Shown: piece by piece, positions 1 through 4,288 of the stretch | Layout of the letters: each line of letters begins with the position of its first letter | How positions within the stretch are numbered: the first letter of the stretch is position 1 | UHGV virus genome: UHGV-0034894 | From: a virus | Strand: one strand, 5' to 3' | DNA length: 33,481 nucleotides | Position numbers and translations under genes: made by a program | Notes under the pieces: model-generated | What the model saw: the letters and a program-made list of their open reading frames with translations, nothing else | Databases searched by the model: none | What the model was told of the DNA's origin: nothing

Positions 1-141
1 GTAAAGAATGCGCGTATAATGCCCGCCCGGTTTGTGTTGTTTTGAGAGTTTCCTTATGGCGCTGTTAATCACTAAAAAATGCATCAATTGTGATATGTGT
101 GAAATTAAATAAAAATACATTTATTTTCATGGTGATGCAGT

Positions 142-165
142 AATGTGTTATTGAATGTGTTATTG
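142..165. repeat. Tandem 12-bp repeat AATGTGTTATTG x2 (plus partial third copy) in AT-rich non-coding DNA
   Basis: Read directly from sequence; function unknown. Confidence 0.5.
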
Positions 166-310
166 AATTTATGGTGCAAAAAAATTTTGCATACGTTCAG
201 CAACACAAAGAGCTCCCCTTTCTATAAAGGTTCATTTGAGACTCCCCCTTGACTCCCTCTTCGAAATTGAAGACCATTAACTGTACATAATTACAGTCCT
301 GGATAATATT

Positions 311-577
311 ATGCGCAGAAAAGAATCAAACGTTAGCAGTTTGCCGGAACTCACCAATTTTGAGGTAAGCTATTCCCTAGTTACCAATGAAGTTTACTTG
401 TCTGCATCCTTCACTGATAACATGGCCTGTATACCAAACTGGCCCTTACAAGAATTTCCGGATCAACTAATATGCATTTCTCGAGCAAAAGCTATTGCCC
501 TAATCGAAGAGCTCCAGAAGACCATCGACTATATGGACGCAGGAATCGATCGACAATCAGGTAGCCTGCTCCAGTAG
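311..577 (+). CDS. Hypothetical protein (88 aa) in AT-rich cargo region
   Basis: ORF only; weak RBS; no recognisable motif. Confidence 0.3.
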   Translation: MRRKESNVSSLPELTNFEVSYSLVTNEVYLSASFTDNMACIPNWPLQEFPDQLICISRAKAIALIEELQKTIDYMDAGIDRQSGSLLQ

Positions 578-710
578 CTGGCGAGTTTTATACTCGTTCC
601 CTGCAACAATGGGCTTTTGGTAAGGCACTCACAAATAAGGAATTCGTTAAGGCTTTTGTTCTGGAGACTCTGAAAGATACAAGGAATCAGTTGATGGCTG
701 GTTTGATCAT

Positions 711-751
711 ACTAATTAATATATTGTCAAACTCACAATATATTAATTAGT
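711..751. promoter_or_regulatory. Perfect 16-bp inverted repeat ACTAATTAATATATTG / CAATATATTAATTAGT with 9-bp spacer, about 130 bp upstream of the 281-aa cargo gene
   Basis: Palindrome read directly; candidate operator or AT-rich hairpin. Confidence 0.5.
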
Positions 752-878
752 GGTAGAACATAAAACCGAGTTCTTGACTTTCAATAGCTATTATATGCGA
801 TCAACAACCTTAACCATCTCCTTATATTTTATGAGATACTCAAACAATTTAAATTTATGAGCAAAGGAAAATAATAAA

Positions 879-1724
879 GTGAATAAAAATCCCTGGGATA
901 TTCCAGCATGGCACGCTCTGGGCCGAGAAGCATCTTTAGTTACACAGCTCATTGGTTCTGGGGCAACAGCCATAGGTAAAGCCAATTATGCAGACAAAAT
1001 AGGTGAATATTACACAGCATTTTTTGGGCTTTCTGTAGGTTTTGAGAGACTTGCTAAACTAATACTTGTTGCACACTATGCCATTGAACACAAAGGGAAA
1101 ATGCCTGATGAGAATATTGTAAGAAAATTTGGACATAAGCTCATTGAATTAACCAACGAGGTTGATAGTATTTCTAAAAAAATGCAACTATCTCTGAGAT
1201 ATTCACGTCCTACACATAAAATTACCTACAAAATACTTGAATGTTTAGATTCCTTTGCTGATGCCCGACGGGGACGTTACGCAAATTTCTCCTCATTAAG
1301 CAGCCCCAATTTAACCAATAATGAACCTATTAATAAATGGTGGGGAGAAGTAGCCGAGAGTATCCTTGAAAAACATTATTATTATACAGTTGAACAAAGA
1401 CGTGTTGAAGAAAATGCTAGGTTTATCAATGCCACTCTTTCACCGTATACAACGGTCATGTATATGAATGAAAGTACCAACATTATGCAAGACCTTATAT
1501 CAGCCTCCATCCGTACTGGACAAAATACCATTGTTCAAAAGTGGGGAAGATTCTATTCTCTTAGCATCGCTCGTTGGCTTGCCACAGTATTAGCAGAACT
1601 GTCTGATATAGCTTCTCATAAATATGGAATAATTAGTTTTTATGGCCTTAGTGAACATTGTTGCAGTTATATAGTTGAAGATAGTTTTTTAAAAAACAGA
1701 AAAATATGGCCACTTCGCCAATAG
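879..1724 (+). CDS. Orphan cargo protein (281 aa), function unknown; candidate accessory/defence gene
   Basis: GTG start with AAAGGA SD upstream; visibly AT-richer than phage genes; convergent with and abutting the truncated invertase; no family recognised. Confidence 0.6.
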   Translation: MNKNPWDIPAWHALGREASLVTQLIGSGATAIGKANYADKIGEYYTAFFGLSVGFERLAKLILVAHYAIEHKGKMPDENIVRKFGHKLIELTNEVDSISKKMQLSLRYSRPTHKITYKILECLDSFADARRGRYANFSSLSSPNLTNNEPINKWWGEVAESILEKHYYYTVEQRRVEENARFINATLSPYTTVMYMNESTNIMQDLISASIRTGQNTIVQKWGRFYSLSIARWLATVLAELSDIASHKYGIISFYGLSEHCCSYIVEDSFLKNRKIWPLRQ

Positions 1725-1728
1725 TTAA

Positions 1729-2043
1729 CTAGAAAATCTGCATAAGGGGGAGAAATCCCCCACCTGTAATAACATAACTACTAAAATTAACACCTTGTTC
1801 GCACAACTCCTCCACCAGCACGACAAGATGCCGCACACTGCGCCCCAGCCGATCCAGCTTCCAGACAACCAGAGTGTCACCTGCCGATAATGTCCTGAGC
1901 AGTTTTTTCAGTCCCGGCCTTTCGGACTTTGTACCGCTTATCTTGTCTTCAAAAAACAGCTCGCATCCTGCACAGTTCAGCGCATTACGTTGTAGATCTG
2001 TGTTCTGGTCATTTGTTGACACACGTACATAGCCAATAAGCAT
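1729..2043 (-). pseudogene. Truncated Gin/Hin/Pin-family serine DNA invertase (N-terminal about 90 aa only)
   Basis: MLIGYVRVSTNDQNTDLQRNAL...TLVVWKLDRLGRSV matches the invertase catalytic N-terminus; reading frame diverges after GVNF and stops; no other frame continues the invertase. Confidence 0.8.
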
Positions 2044-2097
2044 AGTGGATCCCTCTGACAAAAGCAGGAATGATGCCATTTGCTCGTTATTTCTGCA

Positions 2098-2123
2098 TTT
2101 TCATAAACGTTGGTTTGGGAGAA
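2098..2123. repeat. hix/gix-like 26-bp invertase crossover site (distal)
   Basis: TTTTCATAAACG-TT-GGTTTGGGAGAA; inner half-site plus core are the exact inverted copy of the site at 3920-3945. Confidence 0.7.
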
Positions 2124-2468
2124 GCGGCAAAACGGAATGTGGGCACAGGAGATAATCAGATACCGGATATGGGAGCATTCGCTTCTGGTTCGGGATGGTT
2201 CAGGCTACCAGGTGGATATATTGTTCAGTTTGGCACTTTTTCAGGAAACACGACCCGCTTTATCAGTGGACACTTCCCTATACCATTCCCTAATCAGCCG
2301 ATGATTTCAGTCAGTGTTATGTCTGATGCCGTTCAGTCAGACCCGTCGAATCCTGCCCCGCAGGTTTTGTCTGTAAATTTTGAACATATCAGTAATTCAG
2401 CGTGGCGTGTGGCAACCAGTGATATCTCACAGCAATACAGATTCAGTTATATTTCGATAGGACGGTAG
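2112..2468 (+). CDS. Alternative tail-fibre variable C-terminus (Sv'-like), silent in this orientation
   Basis: Starts at the crossover core in frame (GLGE...), no own start codon; inversion would fuse it in frame to the constant part of the fibre gene. Confidence 0.6.
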   Translation, partial: GLGEAAKRNVGTGDNQIPDMGAFASGSGWFRLPGGYIVQFGTFSGNTTRFISGHFPIPFPNQPMISVSVMSDAVQSDPSNPAPQVLSVNFEHISNSAWRVATSDISQQYRFSYISIGR

Positions 2469-2470
2469 AA

Positions 2471-2911
2471 ATGCAGAAATATATTTTCAGTGCCGATAAA
2501 AATGCGTTTTTCCCTGTGGAGCTTAAAATCGCTTATCAGGAATCCGGCGAATGGCCCGATGATGGAATCGAAATTGACGACACTGTTGCTGCCGAATTTA
2601 TGAAGGAAGCACCAGAAGGAAAATACAGAGGTGTCATCGACGGAATGCCTGCATGGATTGATATTCCACCGCCAACTCATGAGGAACAAATTGCCGCAGC
2701 CGAACTGAAAAAGCAGCAATTGATTAATCAGGTCAACGAATACATAAACAGTAAGCAATGGCCTGGTAAAGCGGCGATTGGTCGCCTGAAAGGTGAGGAA
2801 CTGGTGCAATATAATTTGTGGCTGGATTATCTGGACGCACTGGAACTGGTCGATACTTCCGGTGCGCCAGATATTGAATGGCCTACGCCTCCGGCAGTTC
2901 AGGCCAGATGA
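2471..2911 (+). CDS. Tail fibre assembly protein, alternative copy (U'-like)
   Basis: Tfa-like C-terminus (...[20 protein letters not shown]); sits inside the invertible segment. Confidence 0.7.
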   Translation: MQKYIFSADKNAFFPVELKIAYQESGEWPDDGIEIDDTVAAEFMKEAPEGKYRGVIDGMPAWIDIPPPTHEEQIAAAELKKQQLINQVNEYINSKQWPGKAAIGRLKGEELVQYNLWLDYLDALELVDTSGAPDIEWPTPPAVQAR

Positions 2912-3479
2912 CATCCGGCGCGGTGCTGGTATCTGTTGCCGTCACCGCGTCAATGTAATCCAGCACAGCGTTAAGCCGGGTTGTTTCTGCCTGCGTCAGT
3001 TTCCGCCCGGCTTGTAATTTCAGCTGAATCAGACTAATGGAAGCCATTGCTGCATCAATCAGTGACTGGCGCTGTGCTTCTGACGCGTCTACTGCGGCGC
3101 TATGCTGTGCCTCGGTATCCGTCACCCATTTCTCACCATCCCATTTATCGTATGGCGTTAACGGTGAAAGCGTGACATAACCATCTTTGATGGCACCGAT
3201 ATAATCCACTGTAACAGCTGCGCCATTTTCGATTGAGTAAACAGTCTCATTGCGATGGTCCTCTTCATGGCTCCATCCCTTACCTGTAAATACAGCCACT
3301 TTTCCCGGAATGTTTTCGCCAGGGTTAATTCCAGTGGAACAGGCGGGCATACTTACGCCAGTATTAATATATTCATCAGACCAGCCCGTATACTCAGATG
3401 TTTCAGCATCATAATAAAAACAACGCATATCGCCCGGCACTGTAGCCAGTCCATTTTCATCAAAAATTGGGGTCATCAT
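2883..3479 (-). CDS. Tail fibre assembly protein (U-like), expressed orientation
   Basis: Tfa-like conserved C-terminus (...[22 protein letters not shown]); directly downstream of the fibre gene. Confidence 0.75.
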
Positions 3480-4288
3480 TTAGCCCTCACCAGAAAGTTA
3501 AATGCAATATTTCGCGGTCTGACGGCAACAAAATTCACACCATCACCCACAGAGTTACTGGTGAAATTAAATCGTGAAAATCCTGGCTGATTTCCGGCGA
3601 TACCATCATGAAAATTAATTGTGTGGCCCGCACCATCGCCTATATTCCCGGCAAACTGAGAAAAGTTTGTAGCTGCCTGCCAGCTTAATAATTCGCGACC
3701 ACCGTCTGCACCTCGCCCGTCATCCCAGATACGAATGAAATCACCGCGGGCTTCAGGTAATACCAGCGAAGGAAACACTTTCGCCAGCACAGGGTAATCA
3801 GAGGCAGAAAATTTCGCCCCGTTAAACTTCAAAAACACCATACCGGACCAGCTGTCGATGACAGAATTTGGCATTGCAGCGGACGGCCAGAAGAACGGAA
3901 CGCCAATAGCTGGGGCACCTTCTCCCAAACCAAGGTTTTCGAGAGCTGTTTTCACCGTGCCGTCCGATTTGATATCGCCAAACGGATTCTTGCGGCTCAG
4001 GTATTCAACAGCAAACCCCGATCCCAGCAATTCAACAAAACCGGGCAGATCACCATTATCAAGCACATCCCGTTGCGTTTTATCACTTACAAACTGGGCC
4101 AGAGCTGCAGCAATAAAGCTGGCCTGCCGAATAACCTTATTGACTTGCGCACTGGAGGCTTTCCCTGCTGTAAATCCAGATAAAAGCGCGGGCAACGCTT
4201 CCCATTCCTCCTGCGATATAACATTGGCATTTCGATCCGTTGCAAACGCTTTAAAGTCATTTTTCGCCATCAGAGTAATACTCCCCAT
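3476..4288 (-). CDS. Tail fibre protein (constant N-terminus plus variable C-terminus)
   Basis: Fibre-like motif [17 protein letters not shown]; crossover site lies inside the gene; position after baseplate genes; start uncertain. Confidence 0.75.
3920..3945. repeat. hix/gix-like 26-bp invertase crossover site (proximal, inside the tail fibre gene)
   Basis: TTCTCCCAAACC-AA-GGTTTTCGAGAG resembles the hix consensus; encodes ...LENLGLGE... in the fibre. Confidence 0.7.

Follow-up and report, generated by a model that had tools for sequence, protein, structure and literature searches.

Several described systems offer the closest comparisons for a gene encoding a 281-amino-acid (aa) protein in UHGV virus genome UHGV-0034894, a stretch of 33,481 nucleotides (nt) that we call the window. 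HepS, the HEPN Solo defence element of the Salmonella Gifsy-1 prophage (PMC13043305; PDB 9oik), is triggered by the J tail tip, targets tRNA anticodons, and has a canonical R100-x4-H105 motif that is required for catalysis. PrrC, which like RloC is a restriction-linked anticodon nuclease, is reported to occur almost exclusively embedded in type I restriction-modification (R-M) systems, and TgvAB is another embedded example (bioRxiv 10.1101/2024.01.29.577857; PMC11411939). AbiV (Pfam PF18728, PDB 9bj5), one of the abortive-infection proteins that consist of a single HEPN protein, is a further one for comparison. In the e14 element of Escherichia coli K-12, the order is stfE/tfaE, pinE, mcrA, and attachment site (att). 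The 281-aa gene shares its slot with e14 mcrA: in both, a single accessory gene separates the attachment site from the tail-fibre invertase in a phage that is defective or temperate. It resembles the HEPN solo defences in fold and lifestyle, and some of its homologues lie, like PrrC, inside type I R-M operons.

In this report we describe the anatomy of this slot and the replacement that took place in it, together with the size, conservation, mobility, genomic associations, and fold similarity of the protein family. Because this is a solo, mobile, and constrained gene that is found in defence-rich places, and because it has both an HEPN-like fold and precedent in the literature, we propose that it may encode a stand-alone abortive-infection-type anti-phage effector that would protect the lysogen and be carried as a prophage moron. 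We regard this proposal as evenly poised between right and wrong, and we present the protein as a prophage- and R-M-associated, HEPN-like, single-gene candidate defence. The features of the locus are collected in Table 1.

The original prediction, which was made from the DNA letters, had called the 281-aa protein an orphan, and this description had to be abandoned. A search of a 90%-clustered database gave 486 matches. The best 120 of these were mostly 279–283 aa long and 56–99% identical, and all were annotated as hypothetical proteins without a Pfam domain; they came from Enterobacter, Citrobacter, Serratia, Klebsiella, Morganella, Pectobacterium, Vibrio, Marinobacter, Chromohalobacter, Methylocella, Acidibrevibacterium, and many metagenomes. 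An exhaustive HMMER search over 50%-cluster representatives found 788 proteins at a cut-off of E ≤ 1e-3, and 467 at the stricter E ≤ 1e-10. With few exceptions, the complete members among the 788 were 265–290 aa long and aligned end to end. When one genome per species was scanned, 54 loci with 44–74% identity were obtained. They included Gamma-, Alpha-, and Betaproteobacteria, Paraburkholderia, Mycobacterium paraense, and Mailhella, and also Nitrospinota, Fibrobacteraceae, Gemmatimonadota, Chloroflexota, and Binatia. The high identity across phyla, combined with the patchy distribution, indicates that the family has spread by horizontal transfer.

Conservation was examined in 223 full-length members with 26–74% identity. 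Residues E17, E56, K60, H86, and W154 were present in all or all but two members, and R57, R133, and Y134 were kept in all but one or two. Nearly invariant over the same set were G28, Y44, F49, G54, F126, N136, E198, R232, and D268. These results bear directly on the possibility that the gene has no function and is decaying, or that it merely serves the phage in a structural or housekeeping capacity. Such a reading would fit its annotation, which is only that of a hypothetical protein, and its position beside a pseudogenised invertase; nevertheless, the gene is absent from most sister prophages of the same type, occurs in non-phage contexts across phyla, has no match in PHROGs, and keeps seven residues invariant over the 223 members despite their wide divergence. 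Distribution and conservation thus effectively refute this explanation, to which we give next to no chance.

The genomic contexts of the homologues were examined at the 54 species loci, using simple open reading frame (ORF) calls and identifying hsd loci by BLASTP against Enterobacter Hsd proteins. At 10 of the 54 loci (19%) the order was hsdM, hsdS, an optional extra gene, the homologue, and hsdR; the genes were co-directional, and the gaps between them did not exceed about 15 nt. The hsd genes were confirmed by Pfam at two of these loci (L058 and L066), with matches to HsdM_N plus N6_Mtase, Methylase_S, HSDR_N, SWI2_SNF2, ResIII, and T1R_D3. The optional extra gene encoded a 204-aa protein that was weakly PD-T4-4_B-like (E 5.5e-7 and 1.3e-6) and also PDC-M47B-like; at one locus it was instead a TIR protein with a PDC-S35 match (E 1.5e-95). 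From these genes ahead of the homologue it follows that several defence genes can stack between hsdS and hsdR. Their coordinates are 9368–9979 in L066, 9380–9988 in L035, and 5291–6025 in L050. In Enterobacter, the gene lay directly downstream of hsdM-hsdS-hsdR in an integrase-bounded island with Vsr, an HNH protein, and DUF4917. On repeated occasions, a gene found inside a type I R-M operon has turned out to be a defence, as with TgvAB (PMC11411939), and Hma-embedded candidates and the principle of "guilt by embedding" have been described (bioRxiv 10.1101/2024.01.29.577857).

The position between hsdS and hsdR is the likeness to PrrC and RloC, and it is plausible, as a working model, that these homologues act as a back-up set off by the neutralisation of restriction. 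The differences from PrrC and RloC are that the 281-aa protein is much shorter, has by Pfam no ABC or P-loop NTPase domain of the kind that PrrC and RloC have N-terminally fused to their nuclease domain, gives no PADLOC PrrC or RloC match, and that most copies, including the one in the window, adjoin no R-M system; dependence on an R-M partner is consequently not obligatory. The same facts bear on a different explanation, in which the protein is an accessory subunit or regulator of type I R-M, affecting HsdR activity, assembly, or restriction alleviation, and the solo copies are remnants or act on resident hsd genes. The embedded loci and the Enterobacter arrangement, with the gene directly after hsdR, are what it would predict. 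Against it, R-M genes are not near most copies, and the gene is also found on its own in an integron cassette, at a P2 hotspot where its neighbour is a type II system, and in the present prophage; moreover, we know of no Hsd accessory protein with the fold or size of the 281-aa protein. We therefore consider an accessory role quite unlikely.

At the other 44 species loci, the two nearest ORFs on each side contained no recurrent Pfam family, and so the gene appears to have no obligate partner. A conserved two-gene system was also considered and rejected, because neighbours were heterogeneous at these 44 loci and the PD-T4-4_B-like and TIR ORFs were present in few loci. When neighbours at the 44 loci were compared with PADLOC models at E ≤ 1e-10, the matches listed for the best 25 families, counted per protein and not per locus, included MADS (mad3 four times, mad2 three times, mad8 twice), DruD, SoFic, reverse-transcriptase defences (DRT), type II methylases, PDC-S02, and PDC-S59.

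Individual loci outside the R-M operons were of several kinds. In Serratia marcescens the gene occurred in P2-like prophages between gpA and the portal gene, an interval that we take to be the tin/old interval of P2, and in one strain it was beside a PvuII-type R-M system. The Klebsiella variicola copy was at a prophage end beside SRAP, umuDC-like genes, DUF6236, and tail genes; in Motiliproteus the gene adjoined an IS110 transposase, and in Acidibrevibacterium it was a solo insertion with lgt on one side and a hydrolase gene on the other. The V. cholerae and V. vulnificus copies were within co-directional arrays of small genes, cassette-like in V. vulnificus. In V. cholerae (L020, 577–8639), there were ten copies of a repeat of about 133 nt, and two of them (2884–3016 and 3883–4015) flanked the gene (3038–3880). 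Judged by its flanks, which are attC-type repeats within a co-directional array, this homologue is an integron cassette, a description that holds for Vibrio and is not applicable to the E. coli copy. Other cassettes of the same array encoded a SieB-domain protein and acetyltransferases, and on a related contig (L021) a RES-Xre toxin-antitoxin pair was beside the homologue.

The gene thus recurs in four independent kinds of site where anti-phage genes are concentrated: type I R-M operons, the P2 hotspot, integron arrays, and prophage ends or defence islands. Defence hotspots of P2 have been described (PMC9122126; PMC13586616). Six of eight randomly chosen P4 satellites that had only genes without a known function at the defence locus gave protection, and 19% of P2 phages have only unknown genes at their main defence loci (PMC13586616).

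A distant member of the family, 273 aa long (33% identity, E 2e-19), kept the ER..K, GH, and RY.N motifs and was carried by 134 plasmids, most of them conjugative, in E. coli, Klebsiella, and Salmonella. On the one plasmid examined, IncX1/X3 NZ_OX460314.1, the gene (L084, 3603–4424) was near hns, hha, topB, and DinQ-like type I toxins. A factor with which mobile elements counter defence or establish themselves, for example by inhibiting or modulating host restriction to the benefit of the carrier and not of the host, would be at home in such an accessory region and also in its prophage carriers, namely the present one and the P2-like prophages, and its linkage to type I R-M could reflect interaction with Hsd proteins. 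However, a position inside the R-M operon, co-directional with and almost abutting hsdR, as seen at ten chromosomal loci, would be odd for an inhibitor of the same system; the neighbours belong to many unrelated defence systems (MADS, Druantia, DRT, and TIR); and the size of the protein and the strict conservation of seven polar residues suggest an enzyme and not a DNA mimic or small inhibitor. An anti-defence role is accordingly unlikely in our judgment, with some small chance of being correct.

An AlphaFold model built with a 33-sequence alignment was confident and all-helical (mean predicted local distance difference test score 82.9, predicted template modelling score 0.83), with one predicted beta-hairpin at about residues 195–202. 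The parts of low confidence were residues 1–8 and the loop 131–147, which holds the invariant R133-Y-x-N136. Comparison of the model with solved HEPN domains showed a shared core of up-and-down helices, located in the N-terminal ~165 residues; an HEPN-like fold is therefore the probable assignment for this part of the predicted structure. There is no detectable sequence similarity to HepS, whose trigger and target have been determined. L. lactis AbiV is about 200 aa long. The 281-aa protein is approximately 80 residues longer than AbiV and has an extra C-terminal helical half.

In HEPN domains, the fourth core helix has the Rx4-6H motif at its N-terminal end (Anantharaman et al. 2013, as cited in PMC13043305). 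The corresponding place in the model is residues ~107–116, just before helix 114–129, and the RYSRPTH sequence (R107–H113), which had been offered as a speculative HEPN hint, lies exactly there. The hint was thus correct as to position and failed as a family feature. In the closest relatives of the E. coli copy, position 113 is Q, T, or S; over the family, Rx4-6H at reference positions 100–117 was found in 7 of the 117 close members and in 31 of the 106 distant ones, its usual form being R-(L)-P-x-x-x-I-H. RYSRPTH was consequently rejected as the catalytic motif of the family, because H113 is variable and only a minority of members have Rx4-6H. In this respect the family also differs from HepS, whose catalytic motif is canonical. 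By contrast with this variable position, [R/K]-x3-4-H86 at the N-terminus of the previous helix was present in 213 of 223 members, and E56-R57-x2-K60 and R133-Y-x-N136 were essentially universal. We propose that the functional site consists of E17, E56-R57-x2-K60, [R/K]82-x3-H86, R133-Y-x-N136, and W154, and not of a canonical Rx4-6H; the polarity of the helices in the model suggests that the conserved residues may form one pocket. The family is best described as having an HEPN-like fold with a remodelled conserved site, the canonical motif being vestigial in some branches, including the E. coli clade.

Profile searches did not connect the family with any described HEPN family. When 42 members were compared with Pfam, there was one HEPN_AbiV match (E 0.0087), far below the Pfam threshold, and ten members with a canonical Rx5-6H matched no HEPN family in Pfam. 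Profile searches of PDB sequences with two alignments gave chance matches only, and an HdrC match of the 281-aa protein (E 0.054) was dismissed. The protein had been predicted not to be McrA-like, and this was borne out by the lack of any HNH or other Pfam match and by the all-helical model. By sequence comparison, it appears to fall outside every described family to which it was compared (Pfam HEPN families, PADLOC models, PrrC/RloC, and McrA); its separation from HNPBCG_15845 (the HEPN AbiU2 cassette), HEC-08, and the PDC candidates is drawn solely from the negative PADLOC result. A literature search for the protein accession found nothing, and the papers on integron, P2/P4, and R-M-embedded defences describe other families.

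Several of the results weigh against a defence function or against the HEPN-like assignment. The 281-aa protein had no match in Pfam, PHROGs, or NCBIfam, and comparison with the 5027 models of PADLOC-DB v2.0.0, including the PD-T4-x and PDC candidates, gave no family at E ≤ 1. When 42 diverse members were compared with PADLOC, two single matches at chance level were obtained (CARF_HEPN_mCpol, 0.0031; REase_II, 0.0079). Foldseek comparison of the model with the PDB gave no match with E < 0.3, and the conserved Rx4-6H motif that would mark an HEPN domain is absent from most members. At 44 of the 54 species loci the gene lies outside a type I R-M operon, and at several its neighbours are mainly housekeeping genes; the surroundings of the plasmid member fit other roles too. 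Finally, promoter-like sites upstream of the gene were not more frequent than in shuffled sequences in a promoter and terminator scan.

The HEPN-like fold is also consistent with a selfish toxin or addiction gene, or a stress-response nuclease, that stabilises its carrier and has no specific anti-phage role. HepT toxins have such a fold, and integron arrays and plasmids are rich in toxin-antitoxin modules, such as the RES-Xre pair of L021 and the DinQ-like toxins of L084. Against this, over 60 loci were examined and none showed a conserved partner that could be an antitoxin. A toxin that was produced constitutively and alone would not be kept, and the family is full-length and strongly constrained in many lineages. 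We consider the toxin explanation improbable.

Returning to an anti-phage effector as the preferred reading, the gene would be expressed from the lysogen and the protein would remain latent until an infection cue. Once triggered, it would attack an essential nucleic acid, most likely RNA, as do HepS, AbiV, and R-M-embedded PrrC. From the evidence above we infer the defence function itself, and with it the RNA target, the latency, the trigger, and even the enzymatic nature of the protein. A broader and more tentative proposal, which we hold as possible but doubtful, is that the family constitutes a new, widespread type of single-gene immunity with a remodelled HEPN-like fold and a site made up of E56-R57-x2-K60, H86, and R133-x2-N136; it would be a PrrC-like second line wired into type I R-M and MADS operons that also works alone. 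An ability to work alone would explain its solo spread on prophages, P2 hotspots, integron cassettes, and IncX plasmids.

The position of the gene in its prophage was determined by comparison with E. coli genomes. Window positions 1–103 are host DNA that covers the yfhH-yfhL intergenic region and runs 48 nt into the start of yfhL; this segment matched all 5426 complete E. coli genomes and overlapped the annotated start of yfhL. The opening 2.6 kb of the window was 100% identical to the chromosomes of several E. coli strains. In strain WP3-W18-ESBL-08, the host gene yfhH directly precedes the start of the window, and about 42 kb away a tyrosine integrase adjoins an intact copy of yfhL, which is the other prophage end. 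Because of the host match, the preceding yfhH, and the distant integrase with intact yfhL, we conclude that the window is the tail-fibre end of a prophage of about 42 kb integrated at the 5' end of yfhL, and that it is inside the prophage from base 104.

The 281-aa and 88-aa ORFs, the convergent invertase, and the drop in GC content were all found where they had been described. The AT-rich region that was predicted to be a cargo island (311–1775) consists, however, of two parts: a conserved prophage end (104–596) that contains the 88-aa ORF, and a swapped cassette (597–~1783). Only the second part held up as cargo. A search with window positions 104–878 matched 129 E. coli genomes. The full piece was present in 43 of the 129, and approximately 80 matched only positions 104–592, at 93–94% identity; the swapped cassette itself (597–~1783) was present in about 43–44 E. 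coli genomes. Pairwise DNA alignment with UTAK-4 placed the breakpoints at ~596, just 3' of the stop codon of the 88-aa ORF, and at ~1783, within the invertase. The 88-aa ORF had also been taken for cargo, a claim contradicted by its presence in both slot alleles and its phrog_17793 match; it was intact in five sister prophages, with 6–7 synonymous versus 3–5 non-synonymous codon differences, and it had no match in Pfam, PADLOC, or NCBIfam.

The GC content of 597–1783 was 36.0%, with 31.9% for the leader 597–878, compared with 50.2% for the rest of the window; GC content at third codon positions in the 281-aa ORF was 27%. None of 303 equal-size windows elsewhere in the window was below 43.5% GC, and thus the AT-richness of the cassette is not due to chance. 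When the DNA of the loci from E. coli, Enterobacter, Serratia, Klebsiella, and Motiliproteus was aligned, a ribosome-binding AAAGG.A motif and the GTG start were invariant. Because the DNA conserved across genera spans only ~70 nt upstream of the gene to its stop codon, the mobile unit is essentially the 281-aa gene itself. Positions 597–~1783 of the window are a cassette with one gene that was acquired by horizontal transfer.

In the other allele the slot has a gene for a 215-aa protein (WP_0012888xx; L013, 6640–7287, and L081, 4034–4681). Most of the ~80 genomes of this type have the protein, and it had no match in Pfam or PADLOC. In UTAK-4, ETEC H10407, O55:H7 DEC5B, and BH100N, the order was yfhH, att, the 88-aa ORF, the 215-aa gene, pinE, and invertible tail-fibre genes, with full-length pinE frameshifted in two of the four. 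Sister prophages with full-length pinE thus have the 215-aa gene in place of the 281-aa gene. In E. coli IAI1, an acyltransferase gene follows the 215-aa gene. This third state (L082, 5254–6321) has an Acyl_transf_3 gene, no annotated invertase, and a truncated tail-fibre assembly gene beyond; it suggests further remodelling of the same prophage end, possibly with a lysogenic-conversion function. The site between the tail-fibre invertase and att in yfhL prophages is therefore a swappable accessory slot with two or three alleles. The analogy to e14, on which it had been called a known accessory slot, was sound: e14 has mcrA there, and sister prophages have other genes. On its arrival the cassette took the place of the earlier cargo, the 215-aa gene, and of the distal half of the invertase, codons ~89–184.

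The invertase was predicted to be Gin/Hin-like for about 90 residues and to have lost the 3' half of its gene to the cassette, and both points agreed with comparison to PinE and with the DNA alignment. The remaining ORF was 82% identical to the intact 184-aa PinE of a sister prophage, which has both Resolvase and HTH_7 domains, up to residue ~88, and then continued for 15 unrelated residues to a stop codon. Residues 15–101 matched Pfam Resolvase (E 1.5e-28) over profile positions 2–98 of 145, and Pfam found no HTH_7 domain in ORF 1729–2079, so that the complete pair of catalytic and DNA-binding domains of a serine invertase is not present. RefSeq annotates the gene as a pseudogene that lacks its C-terminus. 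The invertase is thus a truncated pseudogene in which the remainder of the catalytic domain and HTH_7 have been replaced by 15 unrelated codons. This distinguishes the locus from e14, where the invertase is intact and the cargo protein is unrelated and has an HNH domain. The crossover sites of the adjacent invertible segment are intact, with 20-nt inverted repeats at 2105–2124 and 3919–3938 that are 95% complementary, and the segment is now without its own recombinase. Since that recombinase is dead, the tail-fibre orientation, and with it the host-range switch, is presumably locked unless another Pin-type invertase acts in trans.

Table 1. Coordinates of features at the prophage end, in window positions
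Feature	Position	Strand	Remarks
Host DNA, att-side prophage boundary	1–103		ATGGCGCTGTTAATCACT...; 95–100% identity in 5426/5426 E. coli genomes, under the yfhL annotation
Conserved terminal prophage segment, moderately AT-rich (39% GC)	104–596		Common to both slot alleles; UTAK-4 homology ends at ~596
Tandem 12-nt direct repeat, AATGTGTTATTG x2	142–165	+	Copies 100% identical; ~40 nt inside the prophage boundary
88-aa ORF	311–577	+	phrog_17793, E 5.8e-46; conserved prophage end, outside the swapped cassette
Cassette leader, non-coding, 282 nt, 31.9% GC	597–878	+	Sister-prophage homology stops at ~597; promoter-like hexamers at 801–828 and 848–875
Perfect 17-nt inverted repeat with 7-nt spacer, ACTAATTAATATATTGT / ACAATATATTAATTAGT	711–751		100% complementary; 128 nt upstream of the start codon
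Shine-Dalgarno region AAAGGAAAAT and GTG start	863–881	+	Conserved across genera (DNA alignment)
281-aa gene, WP_001039127.1, GTG start	879–1724	+	Belongs to a large family that has no name
Truncated serine invertase (pin/gin type), ORF 1729–2079	1729–2040	-	Residues 1–~88 kept; cassette junction at ~1783
Terminator-like hairpin GGGGGA-GAAA-TCCCCC between convergent genes	1746–1761		Sequence reading; T-rich tract after it only on the minus strand
Invertible tail-fibre segment, 1.8 kb	2105–3938		Tail-fibre and assembly ORFs on both strands

Of the remaining features in Table 1, the tandem direct repeat may be a putative arm-type site for a recombinase or integrase, or an accessory-factor site. 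The leader contained no credible small ORF, and an Rfam search of window positions 1–2300 found no RNA family. The perfect inverted repeat at 711–751 overlaps promoter-like hexamers on both strands and may be an operator; in E. coli it was found only alongside this cassette. On the 3' side of the stop codon, other genera have a different conserved hairpin.

Two further observations concern the prophage as a whole. Beyond the right end of the window, the same prophage (NZ_AP022003.1, 1342377–1343138; L002, 17378–18139) contains a gene for a TIR-domain protein, set among early and replication genes near a SNF2-related protein, a VRR-NUC protein, and a DNA polymerase. This gene could be a second cargo gene of the defence type. 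The 281-aa gene is also present in three GenBank "phage" records. In the one examined, ON470579.1 ("Escherichia phage vB_EcoM-606R2", L019), positions 1–2254 are the host genes tadA, yfhB, and yfhH, and the deposited genome thus has a bacterial flank; we therefore did not accept the three records as proof of its packaging in virions.

The locus provides a clean natural case of cargo turnover at a prophage end. A cargo swap beside a tail-fibre invertase is an ordinary phenomenon, and the present example, with its two or three alleles, can be followed in unusual detail. Should the proposed function fail confirmation, the analysis would still be a useful correction, in that the supposed orphan is a conserved family and the slot is a two- or three-allele hotspot. 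For the phage, the acquisition appears to have disabled phase variation of the tail fibre and would thus carry a measurable cost for host-range switching. If the proposed function is correct, the family would be a new anti-phage family of at least 788 sequence clusters in many phyla that has had no name, domain model, or PADLOC entry, and it would join PrrC as a second nuclease-like effector with a genetic coupling to type I restriction. As the solo and embedded copies are 47–58% identical, their direct comparison could show how latency is kept.

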